A DNA stretch of 61,833 bases, filler included, from Chloroflexota bacterium (GTDB lineage Bacteria > Chloroflexota > Chloroflexia > QHBQ01): assembly GCA_043754535.1 (NCBI GenBank). It is 7 parts of 7 records of this genome, joined end to end, with 100 filler letters (N's around TTAATTAATTAA, not from the genome) between each part and the next. Parts side by side here need not be neighbours in the genome. Positions count along the whole stretch, not along the records: positions 1 to 14,638 come from JAYUUN010000043.1; 6 more parts are not named here. The stretch is one strand, 5' to 3'. The translations under genes were made by a program, and so were the position numbers. Below are positions 1 to 35,011 of this stretch, piece after piece. The notes under the pieces are model-generated. The model saw nothing but the letters and a program-made list of their open reading frames with translations. It ran no database searches and was not told the origin of the DNA. Every line of letters starts with the position of its first letter. Position 1 is the first letter of the stretch.

Positions 1-267
1 ACAGTGGTTTGTTAAATTATACCAACTCGACAGGGCGGCCTGCCATTTCATGTTATTACGTGGGCCACCACCGCATTTGTTCCAGGTTCTAGCCATCTAT
101 CATAGCACATAGCCATAGCAGGGGCGCAGAATTAGCCCAAAGTTGGTGCGATGTGCTGTGGTAGGAGCAACAAACACCTTTGGAGACCTACCAGTATCGC
201 GCAGAGGACGGGGCTGGGCTGCGCCTCTCGCGCTGGCAAATAGGCCCAAATTGGTGGACAGCGGGTA

Positions 268-295
268 TCGACAATGGCGAAAAGTGTGCCATAAT
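268..295 (+). promoter_or_regulatory. Putative sigma70 promoter in the CRISPR leader
   Basis: TCGACA (268-273), 16 bp, then TGc-CATAAT (290-295), about 50 bp upstream of the first repeat. Confidence 0.55.
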
Positions 296-344
296 GAGCT
301 TGTTGCAGTAGCCTCTCGCAAGTCGTGCCTAAAGCTAGGCAGGA

Positions 345-527
345 GTTGCAACCACCACCCCGCTTTCGAGGGGATTGAAACCCTTGCTTAGGCATGGTCA
401 CGTGGCACGGTAGCACGTTGCAACCACCACCCCGCTTTCGAGGGGATTGAAACCTGGTTGCCTGGTTGCTCGCCTGTCATCATGCCGTTGGTTGCAACCA
501 CCACCCCGCTTTCGAGGGGATTGAAAC
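345..527 (+). CRISPR. CRISPR array, 3 identical 37-bp repeats and 2 complete spacers
   Basis: GTTGCAACCACCACCCCGCTTTCGAGGGGATTGAAAC at 345-381, 417-453 and 491-527; spacers 35 and 37 bp; CCCC/GGGG stem and 3' ATTGAAAC typical of class 1 repeats. Confidence 0.93.
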
Positions 528-755
528 CTGAACGACCCCAGCATCACTGAGGACTATGCTGGGCAGTTTGCCGCACAGGACAGCATCCCACCCTACCCCA
601 CCGAAGGGCCAAAGACGCTGCATTATGGGCAGCAAGTTCGGGGCGGACTGCCTGGAACCCCAGCTCCTTCCATACCCACACCAGACGTTCCTACTCCGCT
701 ACCATCCACACCTGCTTCTACCGTTTTGCTAGGGGGACACCCGCAACATGGTTGA
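528..755 (+). pseudogene. 3' fragment of a lipoprotein gene, paralog of 34328-35011, fused to the last CRISPR repeat
   Basis: Translates LNDPSITEDYAGQ...PKTLHYG...Pro/Thr tail, TGA at 753-755; matches LNDSTIQEDYPGQ...PRTMHYG of 34328-35011; no start codon. Confidence 0.75.
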
Positions 756-1094
756 CCAGATACTGGGCGACAAGTCCGCTGGGAGCGTCATCCATCGGTT
801 GCATAGCTCTTTGCGCTCTGAAAGTATTCGCGGCTTGGGCGTAGAGATGGGATTTATCCATGTTGCTATGGTTGCTAGGGTGTGTGGCGCAATCTGTCCA
901 GGCAGAGGCGATCCCGGTGACTTCGGTGGCGATAGCGTTGCACCTGAGCCTGGCAAGATACCAGGTTGGGGAAGGAACGCCCGCGACTAAAACACCTCTC
1001 ACCACAACGTTCTGCCATTTGGAAGTATGGGTGCATCGACTTTATCAAGAGGTACACTCTTTGGGATTACAGTCAGCACCCCTGCTTCCAGCTA

Positions 1095-1201
1095 GTAGAT
1101 ACCAGCGTCGTACCTAAAACTTAGGGTTACCTGGGCGAGGTTGCAACGTTCATCCTACCCGCAACGTAGATACCAGCGTCGTACCTAAAACTTAGGGTTA
1201 C
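1095..1201. repeat. Exact 36-bp direct repeat flanking a unique 35-bp segment
   Basis: GTAGATACCAGCGTCGTACCTAAAACTTAGGGTTAC at 1095-1130 and 1166-1201. Confidence 0.95.
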
Positions 1202-1216
1202 ATAAGGAGACTTAAG

Positions 1217-2197
1217 ATGCTCTCAATAGGTTGTAGCACTACCAAAGCAGCTGCTGGGGTTTTCAGGGTTGCAGTGTTGCTTGCAGTGTTGCTTGCAGTG
1301 AGTGGATGCTCTAACAACCCGCTAGGGGACGGGCGACCCCTTCTTGGTCTCTACATCAACCCAGTGGGTGATGGTTGGACTGTCGGCTACTCTGGGGTGA
1401 TTGCCCACTGGCTTAACGATAAGTGGCAACAGGTACCAAGCCCAACAGAGGCTAACCTCTTTAGCATACACATGGCCTCACCTGACAGTGGCTGGATAGT
1501 TGGTGTAGGCGGTACGATCCTCAAGTATAATGGTAGCACATGGGCTAAAGCTAGCAGTCCCACAGATGTCACGCTGTTCTCGGTCTACACTGTCTCACCT
1601 GTGGAGGCCTGGGCGGTTGGGGCTGCGGGCAAAATCCTGCATTATAAAGGTGACAGCTGGTCGTTGGTGGCAAGCCCTACCGATGCAGACCTTCATGCCG
1701 TGCAGATGCTCTCTGCTGACGAGGGTTGGGCGGTGGGTAGCCGACTTCAGACCGCCCAGCCAATGAGTATCATCCTCCACTATGCCAACGGTGTTTGGAC
1801 AAAGCAAAGCACCCCCGAAGGTGTGCGACTGTTTGACATTCAGATGTTTGCTAACGGTGAGGGCTGGGCAGTGGGTCAGGATGTTACGGCCAAGCCCAAT
1901 CCTGACGGTGCCATCCTTCGCTACAAGGATGGCACCTGGACGAGGGAGGCAGTGGCACAGATTTCCTTGCTCAACAGCATCTCAATGACAGATGCGGGTA
2001 ACGGCTGGGCGGTGGGTGGCGGGGCTATGGTACGCTGCACTAACGGTCGCTGGGCCGCTACTGACAGCCCAGCCCCGAAACATGGCCTCTCCAAAGTTTA
2101 TGTCACACCTGACGCTGGTTGGGCGGTTACTGACTATGGCGGAGGCCCGATACTGCGCTATCAGAATGGCACTTGGAGTGCTTTCAAGAACCAGTAG
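1217..2197 (+). CDS. Lipoprotein with GWAVG beta-propeller repeats (YCF48/BNR-like)
   Basis: RBS AAGGAG; lipobox-like VSGC; repeated GW(A/I)VG...ILxY.G..W units. Confidence 0.8.
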   Translation: MLSIGCSTTKAAAGVFRVAVLLAVLLAVSGCSNNPLGDGRPLLGLYINPVGDGWTVGYSGVIAHWLNDKWQQVPSPTEANLFSIHMASPDSGWIVGVGGTILKYNGSTWAKASSPTDVTLFSVYTVSPVEAWAVGAAGKILHYKGDSWSLVASPTDADLHAVQMLSADEGWAVGSRLQTAQPMSIILHYANGVWTKQSTPEGVRLFDIQMFANGEGWAVGQDVTAKPNPDGAILRYKDGTWTREAVAQISLLNSISMTDAGNGWAVGGGAMVRCTNGRWAATDSPAPKHGLSKVYVTPDAGWAVTDYGGGPILRYQNGTWSAFKNQ

Positions 2198-2349
2198 CAG
2201 GCTAGGAGGGTAGCGTGTGGACACTGGGAGCAGGGGCAGCAGACTGTTGCTGCGCTTGGCCGTTGTCCGCGCTGTGAGCAGTCTGCTGATGCTAGTGCCT
2301 ATTGTGCCGCCATCACAATTGCTGACTCGCTGGCTGCCGTGACGTTGAA

Positions 2350-5130
2350 CTACGGCACGCTCTCAATCGCCCGCCGTACGACCTTGCTCAACTCGCCACG
2401 TCGGATGTTGTCGTTGGGCCGGAAGCACTGCCCACCACCGCTGCTGCACGCTGCCCCGTTGATGATGCCTCGGTTTGCCAGCACTTCAATCGCGGCGTAA
2501 GCGAAGTTGTTGTTTGCAACATCGCGGAAGGTCGGGGTGTTGGGGGTGGCAACTGGGTAGTTCCGCGCCCGCTGCACGATGATCGCCACCTGCGCTCGCG
2601 TCACGTTGTTGTTGGGCAGGAAGCAGGGGGCGGCACCGCCGGGGCATTGACCTGGCTGGGTAAAGCCGGTGATCGCACCTGCGTGAGCCGCTGCTTCGAT
2701 GTAGCCATAGAAGACGTTGTTTTGCGCCACATCGCGGAAGGTTGGGGCGGTCGGGTTGTAGGCCGCGATGCCAAAGCCGACCACCGCGATCTTGGCGAAC
2801 TCACCGCGCTTGCTGTTATCGTTGGGCCGGAACAGGCCGCCGCTGCCGCTAACTACGCCACGACAGGCCAGGAACTGGATGTCGTTGTAGAACAGGTTGC
2901 TGCTTGGCACGTCGCTGAAGCTGATGCTGCAAGGGGTGGGGGTGCTGCCACCAGGGGTCGAAGTTGCAGCCGGGAGCGTCGGGGCGGGAGGCGGGGTCGG
3001 CACGGTGAGGTAGGTGACGAACGCATCGCGGCTGCCTGCGTTGTTGGGCTGGTAAGCACCAACAGTGACGAAGTTGCTTGAGCCGCTCTCGCCCACAACG
3101 TAGACCTTGCCAGCCGCATCCACCTTGATGCCCGTGCCGCTGTCTACGCTGTTGCCACCCAGATAGCTCGAATAGCCATAGGCTGTACCGTTGCTGTTCA
3201 CCTCGGTGACGAAGGCATCGGTATCACCGCCCGCTGTACTCTGGTCGGCGTTGACGGTCGGGAAGTTGGTCGCCTGCTGGAAGTCAGGGTTGGTCTGGCC
3301 GGTGACATAAGCGATCCCGCTGTCACTGACTGCGATGGCGTTGGCATAATCGTTGCCGCTGCCGCCGAGGAAGCGGGAGTAGACGAGGCTGCTGCCGGTC
3401 GGGTTGAGCTTGGTGATGAAGGCATCAAAGCCGCCTGCATAGCTGCTGGGCTGGGTGCTGGGGAAGCTGCCGCCGTTGGTGAAGCCGGTCAGATAGATGT
3501 TGTTTGCGCTATCGAGCGCAATGCCAGTGCCGTAATCATCACCGGGGCTGCTACCCGCTGGGCCGCCACCGAGGTAGGTAGCGTAGACCCGCATTCCAGT
3601 GGAGTTGAGCTTGGTGACGAACAGATCGCCGAAGCCACCGGCAAAGGCAGCCTGATAGGGGTTGAGGGTCGGGAAGTTGGTCGAGAGGGTCGTACCAACC
3701 ACGTAAGCGTTACCCCCACTGTCCACCGCAATCGCTCCGGTGAACCTACCCGACGGTAGGCTGTCCTCGTAGTTGCTGCCGCCGAGGTAGGTAGCATAGA
3801 CCCGCGCCCCATTGCTGTCGAGCTTGACGACGAAGGCATCGCTGATCCCGCCGCCGTAGCTGGGTTGCGCGGCGTTGAGGGTGGGGAAGTTGCTGGATTG
3901 GGTCATGCCGGTGACGTAGACATTGCCGTCGGAGGCGACTCCATAGGCCGTATCATCGCTGCTGCCGCCGAGGTAGGTGGAGTAGATCAGGTCGCTACCC
4001 ACCGTGTTCAGGCTGCTGACGAAGGCATCAAAGCCACCGGCTCGGCTAGCCTGAATAGGATTGCGCGTCGGGAAGTTGTTCGCGTTGGTAGTGCCTACTA
4101 CGGTGGCGATACCGTTGGTTACGACAATGCTGTAGGCCACATCCTGCCCCTGGCCGCCGAGGAAGGTAGAGTAGACGAGGCTGCCACTGCTGCTGAACTT
4201 GCTGATAAAAGCATCATTTGTCCCCTGCCCGAAGTTGGGTTGGAACGACCCGGCAGTGGTGGGGAACGGAGTGGTGATCCCCGACTGGGTTGCCCCACAG
4301 ACGTAAACGCTGCCGTCACTATCAATCGCCACCGCATCGGCTCCGTCGGGATCGCCACCACCGAGGTAGGTCGAGTAGATGATCGGGTCAATCACCAAAG
4401 CGCGGCTGTGGTCATAAGCGGCGACATCGAAGCCGTACTCGCCCCCGCCAACGAGGTTGTATCCACCGGTGACGGCCACACGCCCAGCGGCGGTATCCTG
4501 ATAGATGCGCGGGGCGGCCTGGCGCAACTCGCCTGCTGCGCTGCGGATCACTAGTTCATTTCCCTCCATCGCCACCTGCCCAGCTCCCGCCACCTTGAGG
4601 CGGATTGGGCTGAGGTCAGCACCCGGCGCAACGACAAAATCGTACTCCAGCTTGCTGCTGCTTCCATAGTAAACGAGGTCTACGCCGGGATAGACGTTGT
4701 GGTAGCTGACCCGCTCATAGTTGGGGACGTTGTGCAACCACTGACTGCGGTCATTGCCGAGCAGGTAGTTGCTGACCCCGGCCAGCTTGCCTTCAGCAAC
4801 AGGCGACGCGGGGAGATTCGCTCCCTGCAACTGAAACCGCAGCACGGTAGTGGGTTGACTGGCGTTGGCGGGCTGCTGGTTCAACACCATCGTCGTTTCC
4901 TGGTCAGTGAAGTAGAGGCTGTAGCCAGCGGCGTGGGCAAGGTATAGCACGCTGGGGTCGGCCTGCCCCACGTTCGCCTCGAAATGGAGCGGTTGGCTGA
5001 GTGCGTCGTAGGTAGCGGGGGCGGCGGAACGAGCCGGGCGGTTGACCGCCCAGTTGGTGAGGCTGGCTACGCTGCTGAGGAGCAGCAAGGCCAGCGCGAG
5101 AGTAGACCACTTCTTCAAAGATAGACGCAT
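2350..5130 (-). CDS. Secreted SBBP-repeat beta-propeller protein with C-terminal SLH domains
   Basis: RBS AAGGAG before ATG 5130; signal peptide; FEANVGQ N-domain; YSTYLGG repeats; FSDVP...RGEFAK SLH repeats. Confidence 0.88.
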   Translation of the reverse strand: MRLSLKKWSTLALALLLLSSVASLTNWAVNRPARSAAPATYDALSQPLHFEANVGQADPSVLYLAHAAGYSLYFTDQETTMVLNQQPANASQPTTVLRFQLQGANLPASPVAEGKLAGVSNYLLGNDRSQWLHNVPNYERVSYHNVYPGVDLVYYGSSSKLEYDFVVAPGADLSPIRLKVAGAGQVAMEGNELVIRSAAGELRQAAPRIYQDTAAGRVAVTGGYNLVGGGEYGFDVAAYDHSRALVIDPIIYSTYLGGGDPDGADAVAIDSDGSVYVCGATQSGITTPFPTTAGSFQPNFGQGTNDAFISKFSSSGSLVYSTFLGGQGQDVAYSIVVTNGIATVVGTTNANNFPTRNPIQASRAGGFDAFVSSLNTVGSDLIYSTYLGGSSDDTAYGVASDGNVYVTGMTQSSNFPTLNAAQPSYGGGISDAFVVKLDSNGARVYATYLGGSNYEDSLPSGRFTGAIAVDSGGNAYVVGTTLSTNFPTLNPYQAAFAGGFGDLFVTKLNSTGMRVYATYLGGGPAGSSPGDDYGTGIALDSANNIYLTGFTNGGSFPSTQPSSYAGGFDAFITKLNPTGSSLVYSRFLGGSGNDYANAIAVSDSGIAYVTGQTNPDFQQATNFPTVNADQSTAGGDTDAFVTEVNSNGTAYGYSSYLGGNSVDSGTGIKVDAAGKVYVVGESGSSNFVTVGAYQPNNAGSRDAFVTYLTVPTPPPAPTLPAATSTPGGSTPTPCSISFSDVPSSNLFYNDIQFLACRGVVSGSGGLFRPNDNSKRGEFAKIAVVGFGIAAYNPTAPTFRDVAQNNVFYGYIEAAAHAGAITGFTQPGQCPGGAAPCFLPNNNVTRAQVAIIVQRARNYPVATPNTPTFRDVANNNFAYAAIEVLANRGIINGAACSSGGGQCFRPNDNIRRGELSKVVRRAIESVP

Positions 5131-5262
5131 CGGTTTAACTCCTTCTTGTGGGGTGGTCTGCCAACCACCATTTGGTTGAGAGATAGCTGTTGCTAGCAAG
5201 TGGTCAGCCCCAGGCCGGGTTAAGCTGACGCTTGCGTGGGTGGACTAGCCGCTTGCCAGATC

Positions 5263-5307
5263 GCCATTGTAGGCGACTGCCCTGCGCAAAAGTTGGTGTT
5301 TGTTGGT
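5263..5307 (-). promoter_or_regulatory. Conserved operator/promoter, copy 1, facing the SBBP-SLH gene
   Basis: Minus strand ACCAACAAACACCAACTTTTG-N14-CTACAATGGC, same architecture as 8048-8092; a divergent TGgTACAAT (5321-5329) faces the regulator. Confidence 0.75.
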
Positions 5308-5386
5308 CTGCTGACTATAGTGGTACAATTGTAGTAGGCGTATGCTCCCCGCAGCCCGCGCCGAGCAACTCTGGCTGAGGGTAACG

Positions 5387-7960
5387 ATGTACAATCTGGA
5401 AACCTTTCGCAAGCGCGTGCGTGAATGCTACCGCCGTAGCACACCCTATGACGACCACAAGCCCAATCAGCGCGATCTCGCCGAGGCTGTCGGCCTCGAT
5501 CCAACAAACCTGAGCAAGCGGATGCACGGTGTGGCGGGTGAACGGCTGAGCGACGAGAACGTGCGGGCCATCGTCAGCGTGCTGGCCGAGTGGGGTGCGC
5601 TCACGACGCAGGCCGAGGCGTTGGAGTTGCTGGCTCTGGTCAACTGCCCGCCCTTCACCGCCGCGCAGTGGCAAGCCCCGCCACTCGATCTGCTCACCCC
5701 ACCACCTGCCCCCGCTCGTGCCGCTGCTGCCAGTTCCGTGTCGCCAGCCACTAACCCTAACCCACCGACGCGGCACAACCTGCCCCCACCGCTGACCAGC
5801 TTTGTCGGGCGGCAGCAGGAGTTGCGCGAGTTGGAGACGCTGCTGGGCCGCACCCGCCTGCTGACCCTGATTGGGATCGGCGGTTGCGGCAAGACGCGGC
5901 TGGCTTTGGAACTGGGCTATCGGCTGACCGACCGTTTTGCGGGCGGGGTCTGGCTGGTTGAACTGGCCGCCCTGAACGATAGCAGCCTGCTAGCCCATGC
6001 GGTGGCCCGCACGCTCGGCCTTAAGGAGCAGGCGGGTGTAGATTTGGTCGCCACCCTGATCGCCGCTATGGGTGGGCATGAGAAACTGCTGATCGTGGAC
6101 AACTGCGAACACCTGGTTGCCCCGACCGCCAGCCTGATCCACCAACTGCTGCTCGGCTGCCCCAACCTGCGGGTGCTGGCAACCTCGCGGGAGACGCTGC
6201 GGGTGGCGGGCGAGTACGTCTGGCCGGTGCCAACCCTGTCGCTGCCACCCATACGCATAGCGGTCAGTGCGCGGGTGCTACCCCGCTACGAGGCGGTGCG
6301 GCTGTTCGTGACGCGGGCCAAAGCCGCCAGCCCTGGATTCAGCCTGAGCGAAAAGAACGCCGCCGCCGTAAGAACGGTTTGCGAGATGCTGGACGGCATC
6401 CCTCTTGCGCTGGAACTGGCAGCGGCACGGGTAGGGGTGCTTGCTGTCGAGCAGATCAGCGGGCGGCTACACCAACGCTTCCGCCTGCTGACGGGTGGTA
6501 GCCGCACCGCTAGCCCCCGCCAGCAAACCCTGCAAGCCCTGATGGATTGGAGCTACGACCTGCTGACCGCTGAGGAGCAACTGCTGTTCAGCCGCCTGGC
6601 TGTCTTTGCCGGGGGCTGCGAACTGACTGCGGTAGAGGTGGTGTGCAGCGACGAGCAGCTAACTGCCGACCGTTGTCTGGAAGTGCTGGCCGCGCTGGTC
6701 AACAAATCGCTGCTGCTGACCAGAGGGCAGCCGGGGGCGATGCGCTACCTGATGCTGGAGACGCTGCGTGAGTATGCGACGACAAAGCTAAGCGGCAGCG
6801 GCGAAGCGACCAACGTGCAGCAGCGGCACGCCGCCTATTATCTGCAAATGGCTGAGACTGCCGAGCCGGAGTTGCGGGGCAGCGAACAGGCCATGTGGCT
6901 GACGCAGCTGGAAGCTGAGCATGACAATATGCGGGCGGCTCTGGGCTGGTCAATTAACAAGGGGCAGAGTGAGATAGCCCGTGGCTTGAGTGGTGCGCTT
7001 GCCGCTTTCTGGGTGGGTCATGGACACTTTACGGAGGGGCGTGAGTGGCTACGCCTATCTTTGGCCCTAAGCGGTGATGACAATCTGGCGGCGAAGGCAA
7101 AGATGCTGCATGGCGCGGCTAATCTGGCCCTCTACCAAGGCGACTACAACACCGCCAGGCAGTTGTATGAGCAGGTGGTGGTGCTTCAACAGCAGTTGCA
7201 TAATCAAAAGGGAGCAGCCTCCGCCTTGAACAACCTCGGCATCATTGCTGAATATCAGGGGGATTACCTTACTGCCCGCAATCTTTATGAGAACAGCCTA
7301 AGCATCCAGCGTGAGTTGGGCGAGAAGTGGAACATAGCGGCTTCGCTAAACAATCTGGCAATTGTTGTCAACATTCTGGGTGACGCTGACACATCTAGCA
7401 AGCTCGTAGCCGAAAGTCTGGCTCTCCGACAGGAGTTGGGCGACAAGCGGGGGGTGGCTCAGTGTCTGGGGATGCAGGCAGATGCCGCAATCAAGAGTCG
7501 TAGTTATGAAGCCGCCCAGCTAGCTTTGACCGAGGCGGTTGCAATCGCCCGTGCGCTGGAAGATAGATGGCTGATGGCTAATCTGCTCGGTAGCTCGGCT
7601 GATGTAGCTATTGCGCTGACTAACTATCACACTGCCACAAACTTTGTGCGAGAAGCCATTAAGCTGATCAATGAGTTGCAGGATCGCCTGGGACTAGCAA
7701 CGATGCTTTACCGGCTGGCGCGGATACTGGTATCACAAGGTCAGCCAACCGCCGCCGCTATTTTGCATGGTGCGGAAGAAGCTCTGCGCAAGACAATTGG
7801 TTCAACGCTGCCTCCTGACTACCTTGCAGCCCACAACGAACTGGTTGCCAGCCTACAAGCCGCACAGAACAAGGCAGCCTACGCCACAGCCTGGGCCGAG
7901 GGGCAGGCGATGTCGCTCGATGAGGTGATTGCCCACGCCCTCGCAGCCACTGGAGACTAA
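5387..7960 (+). CDS. HTH-like + STAND (NB-ARC-type) ATPase + TPR transcriptional regulator
   Basis: N-terminal QRDLAEAVGLDPTNLSKRM helix-turn-helix; NLPPPLTSFVGR; Walker A GIGGCGKT; Walker B LLIVDNCEH; GIPLALELAA; TPR repeats ASALNNLG. Confidence 0.88.
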   Translation: MYNLETFRKRVRECYRRSTPYDDHKPNQRDLAEAVGLDPTNLSKRMHGVAGERLSDENVRAIVSVLAEWGALTTQAEALELLALVNCPPFTAAQWQAPPLDLLTPPPAPARAAAASSVSPATNPNPPTRHNLPPPLTSFVGRQQELRELETLLGRTRLLTLIGIGGCGKTRLALELGYRLTDRFAGGVWLVELAALNDSSLLAHAVARTLGLKEQAGVDLVATLIAAMGGHEKLLIVDNCEHLVAPTASLIHQLLLGCPNLRVLATSRETLRVAGEYVWPVPTLSLPPIRIAVSARVLPRYEAVRLFVTRAKAASPGFSLSEKNAAAVRTVCEMLDGIPLALELAAARVGVLAVEQISGRLHQRFRLLTGGSRTASPRQQTLQALMDWSYDLLTAEEQLLFSRLAVFAGGCELTAVEVVCSDEQLTADRCLEVLAALVNKSLLLTRGQPGAMRYLMLETLREYATTKLSGSGEATNVQQRHAAYYLQMAETAEPELRGSEQAMWLTQLEAEHDNMRAALGWSINKGQSEIARGLSGALAAFWVGHGHFTEGREWLRLSLALSGDDNLAAKAKMLHGAANLALYQGDYNTARQLYEQVVVLQQQLHNQKGAASALNNLGIIAEYQGDYLTARNLYENSLSIQRELGEKWNIAASLNNLAIVVNILGDADTSSKLVAESLALRQELGDKRGVAQCLGMQADAAIKSRSYEAAQLALTEAVAIARALEDRWLMANLLGSSADVAIALTNYHTATNFVREAIKLINELQDRLGLATMLYRLARILVSQGQPTAAAILHGAEEALRKTIGSTLPPDYLAAHNELVASLQAAQNKAAYATAWAEGQAMSLDEVIAHALAATGD

Positions 7961-7982
7961 AACCAGCCAGCCCGCAGTCTAC

Positions 7983-8008
7983 AAGGGGCGCGCAGTGCGC
8001 CTCTTTTT
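7983..8008 (+). terminator. Rho-independent terminator of the regulator gene
   Basis: GGGGCGC-GCAGT-GCGCCTC followed by TTTTT. Confidence 0.7.
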
Positions 8009-8047
8009 GCTGCCCGCTAAACTTGCTGGATCATTCTTTACCACTTC

Positions 8048-8092
8048 ACCAACAAACACCAACTTTTGGCGATCCCGCCGCGCTACAATGGC
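8048..8092 (+). promoter_or_regulatory. Conserved operator/promoter, copy 2, facing the small peptide gene
   Basis: ACCAACAAACACCAACTTTTG (8048-8068)-N14-CTACAATGGC (8083-8092). Confidence 0.75.
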
Positions 8093-8160
8093 TGCGTAAC
8101 GTTCCTGCTGAACCTGACATACTAGCAGCGAGCGAATAACAACGAAGGGAGGTGAACAGC

Positions 8161-8253
8161 ATGAAGTTCTTGCACATGATCCTTGCCCTGCTCGGCCAGC
8201 GCAACATCGCTCGCCATGACGACCCGAACGGCACCACTTCTTGGGCTGGTTGA
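8161..8253 (+). CDS. 30-aa small peptide MKFLHMILALLGQRNIARHDDPNGTTSWAG (absent from the ORF track)
   Basis: Strong RBS GGAGGTGA just upstream of the ATG, own promoter, downstream hairpin; hydrophobic N-half and polar C-half. Confidence 0.75.
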   Translation: MKFLHMILALLGQRNIARHDDPNGTTSWAG

Positions 8254-8280
8254 TCGCCAACCAGTTCCGTTTCAACAAAG

Positions 8281-8319
8281 AGGGTAGCCGCTGCCATGCT
8301 GTATGGCGGCGGCTATCTT
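8281..8319 (+). terminator. Strong hairpin after the peptide gene
   Basis: AGGGTAGCCGCTGCCAT-gctgt-ATGGCGGCGGCTATCTT. Confidence 0.65.
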
Positions 8320-8506
8320 GGCCTCTCCCTCGCCAGCAACATACCCTTCCCCTTGCAAGCAATTAAGACCAACACATCGTTATGCTAGTTCGCCCTGTTA
8401 CCACTAATTGGGCAGCGTACCGCCTACACCAACTATCCAGCCACTGTCAGGTGAGGCCATGTGTACGCTATTACTCAACTCTCCACGAGTAATCGAGTAA
8501 TGTTGA

Positions 8507-9484
8507 AGTTGGGCTGGCAGCAGCGGCAACCTGACCAGCGACCGCTACAACTACGATGCCTACGGCAGCCTGCGTGCTGGCAGCGTGAGCAGCACCCAGA
8601 ACGCCTACCGCTACAAGGGGCAGCAGTTCGACCAGACGACCGGGCTTTACAATCTGCGGGCCAGGTACTATAATAGCGGGCAGGGGCGGTTCCTCAGCCA
8701 GGACAAGGCTGGGTACAACTTCGAGAACCCTGTGGAGCTGAACCGGTACGGGTACGTTGCAGGGAACCCTGTTAATAGGTACGATCCAAGTGGCTACGGC
8801 TTGATTGACTACACAAAGATACTGAAGAAGATAGATACAACCGCCGCTTATGCTCTTAACCAAATGGGCCAACTTGAGCGCAACCTCATGGCGGGAGATA
8901 CTTACGCCGTTGCTTCCGCCAACCTCTGGGTAGCTGCTAAACTAGAGTTTGAGTGGGTTCAACAATTTAAGCATGACGAAACCTGCTACAGTAGATGGGG
9001 TAGACCTCGTGTTGCACTAGCGTTTAGCATGGTGGCACCCGCTGGCAACTGGCATCCTATAGTAGCCGCTAGAGGGATGGCCTGCCCTCTGTTCCAGATC
9101 ATGATAGCTCTTGACGTTGAACTAGCAGGTGGTGAGTTTATTAGTGGGATTATGCTTGATGGATGGAGAGGCTGGCTTCCACCTGGCTCACAGTGGGATT
9201 GGGGTCTGAACTTGCATGCGGAGCGTCTCCTCTACGAAGCCTTCGAGAGTCAGATACCGTCCGTTGCAAACAGGGGAACAGGTACCTTTTACGCCATAGG
9301 AGTAAGCCAACCACTTTGTAATGGGCAGTATAGAGATGGTCAGAACTGCCAAAGGTACTTTGGGAAGGGGATGCAAACCGGACGCAAGATGTTCCAGCCT
9401 TTCTCAACGGACTTCCCTGGAGTACAAGCACCCTATCCGCAAATAGCTATAGCCTATCCATGGCAGGACAATGTACCCTTATGA
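8507..9484 (+). CDS. Orphan Rhs core + C-terminal toxin (deaminase-like), N-truncated
   Basis: YNYDAYG, YRYKGQQFD..GLYNLRARYY..GRFLSQD, NPVNRYDPSG cleavage motif; CT has HAE and IGVSQPLC-x9-C; in-frame TGA at 8504. Confidence 0.82.
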   Translation, partial: SWAGSSGNLTSDRYNYDAYGSLRAGSVSSTQNAYRYKGQQFDQTTGLYNLRARYYNSGQGRFLSQDKAGYNFENPVELNRYGYVAGNPVNRYDPSGYGLIDYTKILKKIDTTAAYALNQMGQLERNLMAGDTYAVASANLWVAAKLEFEWVQQFKHDETCYSRWGRPRVALAFSMVAPAGNWHPIVAARGMACPLFQIMIALDVELAGGEFISGIMLDGWRGWLPPGSQWDWGLNLHAERLLYEAFESQIPSVANRGTGTFYAIGVSQPLCNGQYRDGQNCQRYFGKGMQTGRKMFQPFSTDFPGVQAPYPQIAIAYPWQDNVPL

Positions 9485-10260
9485 GATCTTACATCCATAG
9501 ATACTTGGCAGGCGAGTCTCAGCAGGTTTGGGTCGAACTAAGATCTGCTAGTGTGAATGTTCGTGGTCAAGAAGTTTATGATGATGTCCTGTCTGTTGTC
9601 ATGGAGTCAGCAAAGAGAGCAATGTACAACTTTACCATCATAATTAGAAAACTTCAAGAACTAAATTACCTTTTCATATCCAAGTCGCCTTTCATTCAAC
9701 CATCTGTAGATGTCAGAAGTTATCTAGATGAGCTAGAAACTTTGTGTGGGTTGATGCCAATGATTATCCGCTCTTGGTTTGAGGTTGTTGGACACGTAAA
9801 TCTAAGTGGCACACATCCATCCTGGTTGGTTTGTGGGGATTACGAACTACTTTCCATGTACGGAGTTGAATCACGACTTACCGCTCTATCCAAAGAGGCA
9901 CTATGCAGGGAGAAGCCCTTTGTAAAAACATACGCCTTCCAAACTACGTCCTCACTCCTCTCTTGGTACGGACATGATCGAGAACGCTTTCTTGAAGCTG
10001 GGACCATAATAGGTATAAACCTATGGGATGATGAATTGATTATGGCAGGGGACCTGGAGGGTGTTAGTGAGATTGTTGCACCTTTTGCTGGAGCAGATGG
10101 TTACTTTCTCCACAAGGATGCGAACATCGCACCAACTTTTATTGAGTACCTGCGCCGCAGCTTCGAGTGGGGTGGCTTTCCTGGCTTCGCCAACGTGCCA
10201 GAAGAACTGCGCCCCACCGAGATGCTAGACTACCTGCGCGAAGGCTTGCTGCCGATATAA
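9481..10260 (+). CDS. Putative immunity protein
   Basis: ATGA overlap with the toxin stop; lower GC; RYLAGE..VW.EL N-terminus and FIEYLRRSFEWGGFPG C-terminus. Confidence 0.65.
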   Translation: MRSYIHRYLAGESQQVWVELRSASVNVRGQEVYDDVLSVVMESAKRAMYNFTIIIRKLQELNYLFISKSPFIQPSVDVRSYLDELETLCGLMPMIIRSWFEVVGHVNLSGTHPSWLVCGDYELLSMYGVESRLTALSKEALCREKPFVKTYAFQTTSSLLSWYGHDRERFLEAGTIIGINLWDDELIMAGDLEGVSEIVAPFAGADGYFLHKDANIAPTFIEYLRRSFEWGGFPGFANVPEELRPTEMLDYLREGLLPI

Positions 10261-10400
10261 CATTATACCAAACAGCAACCGCCCTACAATCAAGCTAACC
10301 GACGAGCAAGCGTCATCTTGGGCGCAGGCTGTTGCTGCTGGCTTTACCCTCGCACAACTGCGCGTGCTATACATAAGCCTGAGCGACAATCCCACCCGGC

Positions 10401-10658
10401 TTGTTCACACCGTCCACCAACTACTCCCCAGCCCATCAGCTAACTATCTGGTTTGGCATCCTGCGCATCAGCTTCCTGTTTGTCCATTGGTTTGTAGCCT
10501 TTACCGAAGCGGGTAAACTGACCAGCTACGTGGCGGGCCTTATACCGCACAACAAAGACGTGTTTAGCTCACTGCTCGGCCTCATCGTCATAATCCTGAT
10601 CTTTGTTGGCCTGCCCACCAAGCTAGTCGTAAGTTTGGTAAGAAGGGCGCACAAATAG
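10401..10658 (+). CDS. Possible small membrane protein or fragment
   Basis: Two hydrophobic stretches; weak start. Confidence 0.3.
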   Translation: MFTPSTNYSPAHQLTIWFGILRISFLFVHWFVAFTEAGKLTSYVAGLIPHNKDVFSSLLGLIVIILIFVGLPTKLVVSLVRRAHK

Positions 10659-10860
10659 CTCCCAAAGCGAAGGCGGCTCTATACGAGTTTGTTAGTGTGG
10701 AGCATGGTCAGGGCGAATGATGACTTTGCGATAGTGATCATGATAGGTTGTTATTATCACTATCATCTAGCTACCAGCCCTCATCAGAGCTAGATCAGCG
10801 ACCACTTTGAGGCCCAGCGCGACGGCCACTTCCCTCAGTTGGTCAAGATCGGTCTCAGCG

Positions 10861-11240
10861 TACTGCTGTTCGCTACTGCCGCTGGGCAGGTGCGCCAGCA
10901 CGCTCCCCGCGTCTAACAGCAGACTGCTAAAGGCAAGCATGAAATAACGGGCAGCTACCGACTAGACTTAGCTTCCAGATCGGTAGCTATGACCGCAGCC
11001 TTGCCTTGGTGATCGACCCAACCACTGCAGGCGCACTTCAGCCGCGCCTGGCTGGGTACCTGGATGCAGTGATCACCAAGCTGGCCGCCTAGTGGTGACC
11101 ACCTGATCTTCTCTACTTACTTTGGCGGCCTCCGTGTTGACTTTGCTACCCAGGCAGCACTCGACAGCACAGGCAACATCTACCTCTCAGGCCAGACCTT
11201 CTCGCTCAACTTCCCTACCAGGAACGCCTACCTTAGTGCT
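10861..11240 (+). pseudogene. Degraded SBBP-repeat protein fragment
   Basis: LLFATAAGQVRQHAPRV*QQ..GSYDRSLALVIDP..LIFSTYFGG..DSTGNIYLSGQT matches 2350-5130, with stops and frameshifts. Confidence 0.75.
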
Positions 11241-11360
11241 GCTCTGTATTGGAGTGCCAGTCAACTACTTGCTAGCGGCAGTGATGATGATGGGGCTCGT
11301 AGAACCCACAGCGAAGCCGCCCATCCTGCTGGTGGGCGGCCTTGTAAAGTAGGTTGGCTG

Positions 11361-13943
11361 TTACTTGCTTGCAGGGTTGATGGTCAACTGCCCGATAGTT
11401 GTATTACCAGGCTCATCCCGCGACAATTCCTTAGGCTTCAAGCTCTGCTGTTCGAAGTAATGAGCGTAGCTGTTAGGGCTGGCGTGGCTGTGGATAATCG
11501 GCTGAGGCTGGGTGGCCCCACGCCGCTGCCCACCCAACGACCGCTCCTGCCTGCCAAGCAGGTCGCCAGCTTGGTACGGACCCTGGTACTGGATCGGGTT
11601 CAGCATCATGTCCACCAGGATTTGTGAGTGGTCCATGAACGAGAGCGAGCCGCCCGACGCATAGTCTGCCTTTGGATGGTCGTCCAGTGAGCTGAGCAGC
11701 ATACTGCTACCGAGAGCCGAGCCGAAGCGCAGGTTGCCAGCGTAGGGTAGCCCAAAAGGGTTGCCAGGGTCGGTGTAGTAGCGCACGCCACAGTCGGTAC
11801 ACTCCTGCACCCACGCATCGTTGAACTTCGAGAAGGCGTGGTCAAGTAGCTGGAAGGTAGCTGCCGACCACTCGGTGGCGTGGAACCAGGTGTCCCAGTG
11901 GTTGCCGAAGCCGAGGATCAGCGGGCCACCAACTAGCGATACCCCACCGTAGTTGGTCTGGAAGGCGTAGCTGGCCGGGGGTGGATCGTCCTCGTCCAAC
12001 ACTGGGTTTTCGGTGTTCCAGTCCCCACCGATCACTACATTGCGGTCTGGCCCCGCCAACTCCTCCCATATCTTGTAGATTTGCCGGGAGCGACACTCGC
12101 TTCCATTATGCGAGGCGTTGGATGCAGGGTGAACTGCAACAGCACGGAGGGCCACTACCTGATCTACTACCAGGCGGGCAGAGAAGGCAGTGAAGTCGGG
12201 ATTGCAGGTAAGAGGGTACCCTGCGTTGTCAGCTTCGTAGCCGTACACCGAGTCCTCGCTACCAGCCACCAGTTGCACGCGCCTAGTCTTCCAGGCGATA
12301 CACTCATGTTCGCCTGACGAGCCGGGTGTATCCCAGTAAGTGGCACTGCCATCTGGCAAGGTACTCTTGCCGCAGATGTCATTGTAGCCAACGGGCAAGA
12401 GCGGCCCCCCGATGTCGAGGTTGGTGAAGAAGAAAGGCCCAACCTCAAAGTAGGAGGTGCCTGACACGTTGCTGCCCAACAACTGCGCCTCGCGGTAGAC
12501 TTCGGAGAACATGATCACATCCGGTTCCCAGATGTTGATGTACTGGTTGATCGAGCGTACAACGCTGGGGTCGCACAGCTTGTATGTCCAGCAGCCGGGG
12601 TAGAGATTGCCGACGTTGATCGCCAGATAGCGTAGCGGGATCGGTGTAGACCAGGAACGTAGTACGAAGAATCCATCTGTAACTGGCACTGCCTGACCGT
12701 TGATCGTCAGCCTCAATACCGCTGCACTGGCCGGGCTGTTCGCCGCCCGCCCTGGTTCGGGTGGGGTGGCCGCGGCCACGCGGAAGCGGATCGCATTGTT
12801 CGACCAGCTTACGATGCTGGCCGCTACTCCGTTGATCGTTAGGGTGCTGCTACCCTGGGTGGCCCCGAAGTTCAAGCCGCTGATCGTGATGATCTCGCCG
12901 CTACCAGCGGCGGCGGCAGCGGGGTCGATCCGCTCAACTCGCGGCTGACCAGGCACGGGCGTGGAAGTAGGCGTGAGAGTGGGAGCAGGCGTTGAAGTAA
13001 TTGCTAGTACAGTAGGCGTGGCAGTACTGCCTGTTGGTGGGGTGGGAGTGCTACTGACCACTACTGAGCTAGTAGCAACCGGCGTGCCGCACGGTTCCAC
13101 TGGTGCTGTTGCCACCCTGATAGCCTCGGCAGTAACGAAGGCTGTACTCACTGGTGTAAAGGAGCCAGGGCGACAGGTAGCGGTAGCCAGAGGAGTGGCA
13201 GTGCCAGCCGCCCGCGTGCGCGTAGCCGCAATACTGGTGTTGGTGGCGGCAATACTGGTGTTGGTGGCGGCTATGGCTGTATTGGTGGCCGCTGCTGCTG
13301 TGTTGTTGGCCGCCGCCGCAGTGCTGGTTGCGGCCAGGCTGGTGCTGGTTGCACCTATGCTGGTGCTGGTCGCTGCCAAACTGGTGCCAGTCGCCGCCAA
13401 ACTGGTGCGGGTTGCGGCCATCGCCGTATTGGTGCTGCTAATCACGCTAGTACCAGTCGCTGCCAAACTGGTACTGGTTGCGGCCAGGCTGGTGCGCGTC
13501 GCTGCCAGACTGGTGCTGGTTGCCGCCAGGCTAGTACCCGTTGCTACCACTGCTGTGTTGGTACCATTAGCAGCAGCAGCAGTAATCGTTGCCGCCAGCA
13601 CAGTGAGGGTGGTTGCAGGTGTGGCGGGAACGAAGGCTGTATCGGTCGGGCCTGGGGTATAGTTGGGGCTGGCTGCCGTCAGGGTGGCCGCGACGTTGGT
13701 GTTGGTTGCCTGTATTGCTGCCTGGGTCAAGACCCCGACAAATGTAGTACGAGTCAGGTTAGGAGTGCTGGTGCCAGTCAGGGTCAGCTTGGCTGTAGTG
13801 TTATCTGCCGAGTAGAGGCTGGTGGTTTAAACGGTCAGCCGCACCGCTAGCAGAACCAGACTGAGGGCCGAAACTCCTAATACCACAGCCAGGTAGCTCA
13901 TCCAGGCAGGCAGTTCCAGTGACAACTTTGCTTTACCCATCAT
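11361..13943 (-). pseudogene. Membrane-anchored protein: TM, Thr/Ala heptad stalk, IPT/TIG domain, exonuclease-endonuclease-phosphatase domain; in-frame TAA at codon 39
   Basis: ATG 13943 is in frame with ORF 11361-13730; TAA at 13827-13829; EEP motifs INVGN, DVIMFSEV, VIGGDWN, LDH, MDH. Confidence 0.7.
13200..13560 (-). repeat. 21-bp (7-aa) coding tandem repeats, TSLAAT(S/R/G)/TSIAATN
   Basis: Visible in the translation of the stalk; coordinates approximate. Confidence 0.85.
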
Positions 13944-14525
13944 GTGTTTACTACCCCACTTCAGAGACCGGGGTTAACCCAGATGCCATCTTGTGTCAAA
14001 GCGTCGGCTTGAGTTCATTTGCGTGATCTCAACGCAGTTAACAACTTTCATCACTGCCAAGTATACACTGATATGCTTTCTTCTGCAAAGGACAGAGCCT
14101 GGCTGTTTCCAAAGGCTCGGCAGGGATCGGTTAATGTAGCAGACACAGCTTCCCCTTCAGCTTAGGTTTAGATTCCTATTGGGGAATTGGCTGTAGCCAT
14201 TGTCAGTTCAGTAAACTTGGCTCATGAGCAGAAATCTTATGCTACTGACCGGACCGACGTTGAATGGCTGTGCGTCGGCCCCCTGGTTGAATGTAAGTCC
14301 AAGGTCGGCGCACCCACTGAGTTGCACATCTGCACAGTCGTCAGTCTCAAGTAGTGGCTGCCCAGGCTGCTCTCTCAGCTTGAGGGTGGCGACCAGTACT
14401 GTGGTAGGAAGGTGGGGTCTCTGAGGGTGGCCGCTGCGACCAGGTAGACCACCCCAGCATAGTCTTCCAACAGGCCGCCACCTGACCGCATCCCCACCTT
14501 GCTTACTCAGCTTCATGCCCAAAAA

Positions 14526-14554
14526 TTGACACTGTGGCCCTACTCTGCTAGGAT
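14526..14554 (+). promoter_or_regulatory. Putative sigma70 promoter; target gene lies beyond the contig end
   Basis: TTGACA-17 bp-TAGGAT. Confidence 0.5.
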
Positions 14555-14638
14555 ATGCCCAGCCAACGCCACAGCTATAGCATATGTCTAACCCATCGTT
14601 GGTGGAGACACAGAGAGGAGGTCAGGCTGAGGCATCCC

Positions 14639-14738
14639 NNNNNNNNNNNNNNNNNNNNNNNNNNNNNNNNNNNNNNNNNNNNTTAATTAATTAANNNNNN
14701 NNNNNNNNNNNNNNNNNNNNNNNNNNNNNNNNNNNNNN
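14639..14738. other. Artificial contig linker
   Basis: N44-TTAATTAATTAA-N44; same linker at 29264, 34017, 38762, 52883 and 57413. Confidence 0.98.
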
Positions 14739-34327: not shown

Positions 34328-35011
34328 TTAGAGGTTTGGCATGATAGCCGTTGGCGCAGTATCCCCGTAGTGCATGGTTCTTGGCTGCTTATCTTCACGG
34401 CAACTAGCTGTTTGTTGTGCCTTTAGCTTTTCACGCTGGCCGGGATAGTCCTCCTGTATGGTCGAGTCGTTCAGCAACCCCTGGAAGAAGCCACCTTTGG
34501 GTGAGCTAACGAAGTGCGTTACTCTGGCTGACCAGATGTCGAATGTCAAGCCCATATACTCTACTTGACTTGGGCCTGCCATGCCTCCACCGGGTACACC
34601 CCGTAGATCAAAGTCTCCTTTAAGGATCACTAGCATCAAGGGCGGTTCTTCAATGGTGCCGAAGTAGATGCAGCCCATGCCCAAAGAAGCCATCTCTGCT
34701 GGTACGATTGGGCGGCTAAGGAGTACCTGCGGGACAGTAGTGCTACCATCCTGGTTAAGCTCAGCCTGTGCATACTGCTGGGCGTAGTGACCAACTTCTT
34801 GCGGTGATGCGCCAACCAGATTCCGAACACGCCCATACTCGAACACTGGGCCAGATGATGTTGGCGAAGGGCGTGGTGACTTGTCACTGGTTGTAGCTGC
34901 TTGGGCTTTAGAGGTTACAGCCGTACTATCGGTCTGGGTGCAGCCAGATAGAGCAAGGGACATTATGCTCAACATCAAAGCTGCCACACCCACTATTGAA
35001 CGCTTCCTCAT
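34328..35011 (-). CDS. Lipoprotein of unknown function
   Basis: RBS AAGGAG; MRKR..LALSGC lipobox. Confidence 0.8.
   Translation of the reverse strand: MRKRSIVGVAALMLSIMSLALSGCTQTDSTAVTSKAQAATTSDKSPRPSPTSSGPVFEYGRVRNLVGASPQEVGHYAQQYAQAELNQDGSTTVPQVLLSRPIVPAEMASLGMGCIYFGTIEEPPLMLVILKGDFDLRGVPGGGMAGPSQVEYMGLTFDIWSARVTHFVSSPKGGFFQGLLNDSTIQEDYPGQREKLKAQQTASCREDKQPRTMHYGDTAPTAIMPNL

Follow-up and report, generated by a model that had tools for sequence, protein, structure and literature searches.

Spacers that match the chromosome of their own cell are usually discussed as lethal accidents, which are lost or silenced. In the locus analysed here, the last repeat of a small CRISPR array runs directly into a piece of a host-type lipoprotein gene (the relic), an arrangement that can be compared with several described systems. 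Recombination between spacers and their targets has reportedly been seen between phages and CRISPR loci, in staphylococci and in the laboratory (work ascribed to Varble et al., 2019, in Nat Microbiol). The likeness to our case is that 30–40 nt of spacer homology is said to join the array to the target exactly at the repeat–spacer border; the staphylococcal case concerned phage DNA and transduction, whereas in our locus the array is joined to a gene of the chromosome, in a form that is fixed in wild populations. In the available portion of Wimmer and Beisel 2020 (PMC6990116), self-targeting spacers are likewise array sequences identical or nearly so to a gene on the cell's own chromosome, where a PAM-like motif adjoins the matching site. 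Those spacers are of spacer length and have a repeat on both sides, whereas here the similarity extends over 214 nt and the array stops without a closing repeat; the relic is not a spacer-length insert between two repeats, which is the criterion for a self-targeting spacer. Conserved trailer ends, as the excerpted text of PMC8047081 presents them, are alike in that the leader-distal end is common to populations and the leader-proximal content differs; terminal repeats are degenerate in that account, whereas here the last repeat is perfect and the ‘trailer’ is a piece of a gene.

The CreA and crlRNA elements (10.1101/2024.12.27.630466, 10.1101/2024.01.05.574328) and Racr (PMC10651486), in the extracts of these sources at hand, likewise have a single or terminal repeat that leads into sequence matching the host, and in two of the metagenome records described below (L019 and L020) our repeat is truly solitary. 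In those extracts the elements match promoters partially and lie by cas or toxin genes or in phages, whereas the relic matches a coding region at 33/35 positions, in the sense orientation, and lies between pieces of pseudogenes. In prophage integration into CRISPR repeats, as given in part of the preprint of Varble et al. 2020, other DNA is also joined within or at the repeat and spacers are lost or transferred; at our locus, in contrast, there is no integrase or phage DNA, and the neighbours are fragments of host genes. Self-derived spacers and spacer–target recombination are already known, and we regard the junction as a variant of these, produced by a mechanism that we infer. In the literature that was searched, we found no report of such a repeat–gene junction in wild genomes, which is far from proof of absence.

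The window, that is, the whole stretch of DNA that was analysed, has 61,833 nt and consists of seven joined contigs (C43, C44, C46, C47, C49, C52 and C58) of one MAG, G000, which was obtained from short reads (3.87 Mb, 132 contigs, 88.9% complete, 0.7% contaminated). It contains twelve runs of 44 N, which form six pairs with a 12-base linker inside each pair. Such a block (44 N, TTAATTAATTAA, 44 N) occupies 14639–14738 and occurs at five more places, and there is no linkage across any of them. Contig C43 corresponds to positions 1–14638 from its first base, and the array lies near a contig end. Windows made of joined MAG contigs can suggest false linkage: the lipoprotein gene at 34328–35011, with which the original prediction had compared the relic, is on C47 and the array is on C43, so its position in the window is no evidence of linkage. 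The features of the array and of its right flank are as follows:

217..344, + strand: CRISPR leader, 74–79% identical to the DNA 5' of repeat 1 in the arrays on C27, C94, C50 and C62
268..295, + strand: predicted promoter-like site in the leader (TCGACA, 16 nt, TG-CATAAT), with 10/12 sigma-70-like matches
345..381, + strand: repeat 1, 37 nt, exact; Rfam CRISPR-DR10 match just below the gathering score
382..416, + strand: spacer 1, 35 nt, unique; no match elsewhere in the MAG or in phage or plasmid collections
417..453, + strand: repeat 2, 37 nt, exact; Rfam CRISPR-DR10 match just below the gathering score
454..490, + strand: spacer 2, 37 nt, unique in the MAG
491..527, + strand: repeat 3, the array's last; complete and identical to repeats 1 and 2
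528..741, + strand (sense): relic of the 3' end of a lipoprotein gene, non-coding, equivalent to the region from residue 172 to about residue 243 in the intact gene on C110
742..1094, no strand assigned: unique DNA after the relic, with no other copy in the MAG (blastn, tblastx) and no DNA match in 40 related genomes
34328..35011, − strand: distant paralog of the lipoprotein on contig C47, not the source of the relic (BLASTP 16/37 aa, E 1e-07)

Three 37-nt repeats that are 100% identical, separated by spacers of 35 and 37 nt, make this a CRISPR array by definition. Against Rfam CRISPR-DR10 (RF01323) the repeat scored 37.0 bits on the + strand (E 2.8e-06), just below the gathering score of 39, and the long arrays on C27 and C50 have repeats that differ from it at 2–6 positions. 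Each array of the genome has its own repeat variant, and the variant of C43 occurs at only three places in the MAG (345, 417 and 491). Its leader is shared with arrays that lie beside cas genes: the 25-repeat array on C27 adjoins a type III-B (cmr) module, and the mini-array on C62 adjoins a type I-D operon (cas3', cas10d, csc2, csc1 and cas6). The genome has one cas1 and one cas2, both on C62, and a leader-like stretch directly follows cas2. No cas genes were found on C43 (14.6 kb), neither among its 5 large ORFs nor in 1217–2197, and only 344 nt are seen 5' of repeat 1. The array is a real orphan mini-array of the genome's type I-D/III-B repeat family. The promoter-like site at 268–295 is the sole sigma-70-like site in 1–1400 (shuffled sequences gave a mean of 0.7 sites), the other leaders carry TTGACA ... 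TATAAT at the same place, and no terminator-like site was found in 1–1400. At least five homologous leaders exist in the genome, including those at C94:2528–2839, C62:20928–21161 and C62:32637–32710; several of them head just one to three repeats, often degenerate, and mini-arrays are common here.

Since the leader is at 217–344, the array reads from left to right, with repeat 3 at the end far from the leader. Only the C43 contig gives spacer 2, repeat 3 and the relic in this order; the contigs from sequencing runs are too short for ordering identical 37-nt repeats. A degenerate terminal repeat is usual in CRISPR arrays according to the accessible part of PMC8047081, and the last repeats on C62, C112, C27 (second array) and C119 are indeed 3'-truncated or degenerate, whereas repeat 3 is perfect, which suggests that it was formerly internal and that the array was once longer. 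It had been predicted that the array has no closing repeat, and this was borne out, as no fourth repeat beyond chance was found after the relic. The best downstream candidate on the same strand, 1066–1102, matches at 22/37 positions, and 12 of 200 shuffles did as well or better; a further repeat-like match of 23/37 lies on the opposite strand, within a gene, and both were rejected.

Our analyses confirmed that the first base after repeat 3 begins lipoprotein homology. A recount gave the 9/13 amino acids and 29/39 nucleotides of identity to 34328–35011 that had been reported (BLASTP E 1e-07), and in translation the frame from 528 reads LNDPSITEDYAGQ... with a stop at 753–755. That gene is one of six family members in the genome (on C110, C7, C47, C103, C111 and C54), which share 27–44% identity with one another and belong to no Pfam family, and it is a distant paralog; the near source is another gene. 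A search of the whole MAG matched 528–741 to G000:C110:7243–7457 (− strand) with 96% nucleotide identity and E 1.4e-94, so that the homology is far stronger than had been claimed and, at 214 nt, continues well past the length of a spacer, as predicted. An intact copy of the gene elsewhere, which the original prediction had proposed to look for, is thus present: the stretch on C110 sits inside an intact ORF of 252 aa, whose protein has, as judged by eye and not by a predictor, a signal peptide and a lipobox cysteine (MIRRALLLFSLLLVAC). The paralogs, also by eye, have a cysteine after a hydrophobic stretch as well, and the relic is without this part. Across about 215 nt the relic differs from C110 by 8 substitutions, of which 2 are synonymous and 6 are non-synonymous, and by a single-base deletion near 732. 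Comparison with the paralogs showed that the relic is without a conserved cysteine (PPYP versus PPCP in C110) and retains a glutamate that is altered in C110; both copies have therefore drifted.

The homology begins at exactly base 528 (...GATTGAAAC|CTGAACGA in C43 versus ...CACAAGGTG|CTGAACGA in C110), and GTG forms the three bases immediately before the breakpoint in C110. There is no microhomology at the junction, as the repeat and the 37 nt upstream in C110 agree at 7/37 positions, with no shared bases at the joint. The first 35 nt of the relic match C110 at 33/35 positions and encode the most conserved motif of the lipoprotein family. At the other end the homology fades at about 741, roughly 30 nt before the stop codon of C110, and from 742 onward the sequence is unrelated to the C110 flank. 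Because a TGA lies in frame inside the repeat, two codons upstream of the relic, and the sole in-frame start codon is a TTG at 726, the relic is untranslatable as it stands. No second high-identity copy of the gene's 5' half was found in the MAG, where tblastn returned only the distant paralogs (27–44%).

The original prediction had also held it equally possible that the junction is an assembly chimera, in which the assembler walked from the array into the gene through a true self-matching spacer. In favour of this, the genome is a MAG of 132 contigs built from short reads, and the array lies near a contig end. The contigs of four public runs from four studies (X1, X5, X6 and X9; X1 is a possible source sample) were aligned to 1–2300. 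In X1, one contig covers 501–580 with zero differences and carries the array-specific bases of the repeat together with the relic's own 536C and 550A; this contig (record 4) extends 53 nt past the repeat, more than any spacer length seen in the genome (34–42 nt), and 27 nt on the repeat side, less than the 31-nt rule. The C110-type sequence forms a separate contig in X1, and the loose end of that contig at 528 is the upstream flank found in C110. Record 18 of X6, from another study, is exact over 491–580, with 37 and 53 nt on either side of the junction. Among the pieces listed for X5 and X9 none bridges 527/528, which counts neither for nor against. An exact-pattern scan of a metagenome contig collection gave two more bridging records, L019 (1,844 nt) and L020 (4,087 of 8,054 nt), whose flanks differ from C43 by 3.2% and 1.4%, respectively, and which thus come from other populations. 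The stretch 491–741 is identical in C43, L019 and L020, and all nine differences from C110 are shared; the DNA around the relic is equally conserved, with 1–2 differences in 491–1124. The repeat–relic junction is real, inherited and older than the split of the three populations. With three independent bridging records (X6 record 18, L019 and L020), with C43-specific bases linked to the repeat beyond any spacer length, with the C110-type sequence standing apart in X1 with its own upstream flank, and with a contig that departs from C110 after 741, a chimera is so unlikely as to be nearly negligible. As the relic differs by 3.7% from C110 and not at all among the three populations, the present-day C110 gene is not a direct recent donor.

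The runs also inform on the left side of the repeats. In X1 the depth is 39 for the contig with spacer 1 and 31 for that with spacer 2, versus 49–53 in the flanks, which would fit a mixed population. In X5, X6 and X9 the leader (232–308) is uncovered at 95% likeness and the repeat has other left contexts; two 30-nt loose-end strings, the left contexts at 344 and 382, are absent from the MAG with up to 3 mismatches allowed. One X1 contig matches from the first base of spacer 1 (382) and is preceded by at least 255 nt of unrelated DNA that is absent from the MAG; it may represent the target of spacer 1 or another junction of the relic type.

In L019 and L020 the repeat is single and is preceded not by spacer 2 or the leader, as in C43, but by the following feature:

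L019 reverse strand 1–742, and L020 1–67; − strand with respect to the repeat: 5'-truncated cytochrome P450 gene fragment (Pfam p450)

This fragment is an open frame of 235 codons, and it matches positions 82–331 of 462 in Pfam p450 (E 9e-34). It is 83% identical to the nearest full-length relative found, P0001 (445 aa), from residue 77 of the latter, which is the second codon from the repeat edge, so that about 76 N-terminal residues are missing. One perfect repeat thus stands between two 5'-less genes, which both begin at its edges and both point away from it. On the P450 side a GTG lies exactly 35 nt before the repeat. A left context of this kind also appears at loose ends in X6 and X9, and the 30-letter string of X9 has a small differing patch that would shift the P450 frame; this context fits a decaying pseudogene better than a spacer. 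In L019 and L020 an ORF could run from an ATG inside the relic (antisense) across the repeat and into the remainder of the P450 gene. At the right end of C46 (33771–34016, − strand) there is a P450 3' end with the haem-binding loop, cut by the contig end and 76% identical to P0001. This piece and the L019 fragment do not overlap and may belong to the same gene, in which case C46 would adjoin the repeat in some genomes.

We propose, with our confidence evenly balanced, that the junction is a scar, left when a self-derived spacer underwent recombination with the gene it came from. The cell would have taken a spacer from a GTN-flanked site in its own lipoprotein gene and placed it after repeat 3; this spacer would then have recombined with that gene, or with a nearly identical copy, or would have primed copying from one of them. 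In this way the gene sequence would have been extended to 214 nt and the remainder of the array would have been lost; the relic would have been left untranslated and decaying, with a source-like gene intact on C110. The truncated P450 gene in the sister populations suggests that the same process took place on the 5' edge of the same repeat. The original prediction had already proposed that a self-derived spacer recombined with its chromosomal protospacer and that the intervening DNA was deleted, or that Cas1–Cas2 joined a long chromosomal end. The idea of a boundary set by CRISPR adaptation gains support from the exact boundary, the GTG in C110, the perfect last repeat and the mirrored P450 junction. 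The deletion of intervening DNA finds no support in the sequences, as a gene 96% identical to the relic is intact on C110, the homology stops about 30 nt before the stop codon and the flank is unrelated. Given where the relic stops (about 741) and the unrelated flank, one has to assume a second event, the loss of a paralog or a repair of the copying type, which weighs against the recombination reading.

Spacer integration defines where a repeat ends and the following spacer begins. If the relic began as a spacer, its homology must start at the first base after the repeat, as is observed, and a PAM must lie just before the matching site in the gene, where C110 has GTG. In the portion of PMC10212523 available, the PAM of type I-D is 5'-GTN in Synechocystis, whereas the Microcystis I-D system uses GTH and does not accept GTG, so that the motif at C110 also counts against the recombination reading. 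GT at one fixed place has a chance of 1 in 16, and on the P450 side several offsets were allowed. Spacer lengths in the MAG range from 34 to 42 nt (n = 53), and 35 nt, the distance of the GTG from the repeat on the P450 side, is the second commonest (9/53). The first base is C in 21/53 spacers and CTG is the commonest first triplet, in 6/53, far more than the 1/64 expected, which may mean that DNA with certain bases at its PAM-side end is captured preferentially; the relic begins with this same CTG. The PAM, the CTG start and the offset of the P450 GTG are none of them strong alone; they were noticed once the junction had already been selected, and all point the same way. Searches of 340–1210 against phage and plasmid collections gave no match, and hence no spacer target from which a PAM could be read.

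The exact boundary and the PAM would be explained just as well if Cas1–Cas2 had joined one end of a long chromosomal DNA to the repeat–spacer boundary, in a half-site or over-long integration, and repair had then lost the distal array. The genome has cas1 and cas2, and a second copy of the gene would not be needed. Normal integration, in contrast, duplicates the repeat on either side, and no closing repeat was found; it occurs at the leader end, and the junction is leader-distal; moreover, the mirrored P450 junction would require a second such accident. We consider this account of the junction unlikely.

Against the recombination reading also stands the absence of other self-derived spacers: among the 53 ordinary spacers, 0/53 matched the MAG beyond chance matches of 16–18 nt, so self-capture is uncommon here. 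The same figure favours an illegitimate rearrangement in a junk-rich region, of which one end fell on the edge of the repeat by chance and in which the GTG is a coincidence. Other debris lies nearby (the unique non-coding DNA of 742–1094 and a two-copy repeat at 1095–1201), the right end of the relic is not explained by CRISPR, and the junction was picked from a very large scan, in which coincidences of 1–3% will appear. The GTG, the perfect last repeat and the second truncated gene were, in contrast, found after this selection and are jointly unlikely by chance, and the junction is without microhomology; a rearrangement of this kind is in our view possible and somewhat doubtful.

We searched for an unbroken ancestral locus and found none, the related genomes being too distant; this, too, counts against the recombination reading. 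A DNA search of 40 related genomes returned only repeats in G001, which belongs to the same genus, and short bits of the beta-propeller gene. The best P450 match in G001 has 55% identity to P0001. Eight P450 loci were inspected, and in none does a P450 gene have a lipoprotein gene as its neighbour; no P450 or beta-propeller gene was found within 4 kb of any lipoprotein paralog. As the beta-propeller protein has dozens of paralogs per genome, its orthologs could not be picked.

The solitary repeat of L019 and L020 also allows a different order of events, in which a repeat with a self-derived spacer on either side, one from a P450 gene and one from a lipoprotein gene, would have served as a repair template. 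Here CRISPR would have attacked the cell's own chromosome, and a solitary repeat would have been copied in, replacing the 5' halves of the two genes and giving the form of L019 and L020; a later repeat-to-repeat recombination would have added a live leader and array, which gives the form of the window. Taken together, this repair and the later attachment of the array seem improbable to us. If true, CRISPR arrays would be donors and partners in chromosomal rearrangement, beyond their role as immune memory.

Whatever its origin, repeat 3 with the relic might be a retained functional unit that yields a crRNA-like guide (of the crlRNA or CreA type) against the lipoprotein family, a reading that is compatible with the others. 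The leader has a promoter-like site, and no terminator-like site lies before 1400; repeat 3, like the other repeats, ends in ATTGAAAC, and this full end is the 5' tag expected from cutting by Cas6. The 35 nt that follow match C110 almost perfectly next to GTG and encode the family's most conserved motif, and repeat and relic are identical across the three populations. On the other hand, the guide would have the sense of the mRNA, so that base pairing between the message and an RNA-targeting III-B complex would be impossible, and a near-perfect match to DNA beside a PAM should lead to cleavage instead of repression. In L019 and L020 the P450 fragment stands in the place of the leader, and the identity of the relic is matched by its neighbouring DNA, which is equally conserved. 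A guide function is thus a long shot, with very little probability in our estimate.

If the recombination reading holds, a fixed wild junction that leads from a perfect repeat into a host gene would be natural evidence for recombination between array and chromosome through captured self DNA, and such recombination would make pseudogenes and rearrangements. For annotators, an apparent ‘last spacer’ can be the relic of a gene.

The DNA downstream of the relic shows some further features. Two ORFs in it (748–987 and 860–1114) belong to no Pfam family, and the MAG holds no copies of 700–1300 other than C110 and C43 itself. A 36-nt repeat is present in two exact copies at 1095–1130 and 1166–1201, 35 nt apart and thus of CRISPR-like dimensions; the gene at 1217 has its start codon 15 nt past the end of the pair, and the repeat has no Rfam family and no further copy in the MAG. 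Both copies are identical in L020, and BLAST finds both in L019. The rejected repeat candidate at 1066–1102 overlaps the first copy; were it genuine, the array would have an old, degenerate terminal repeat 538 nt past repeat 3. One X1 contig carries 1131–1162, the stretch between the 36-nt copies, with unrelated DNA on both sides, as the target of a spacer would. Further to the right, a 66-nt stretch of the beta-propeller lipoprotein gene (1462–1527) recurs 7 kb away at 8405–8470 (− strand) with 92% identity, and the depth of the run triples over 1464–1540, which indicates that this stretch is a repeated module of a large gene family.
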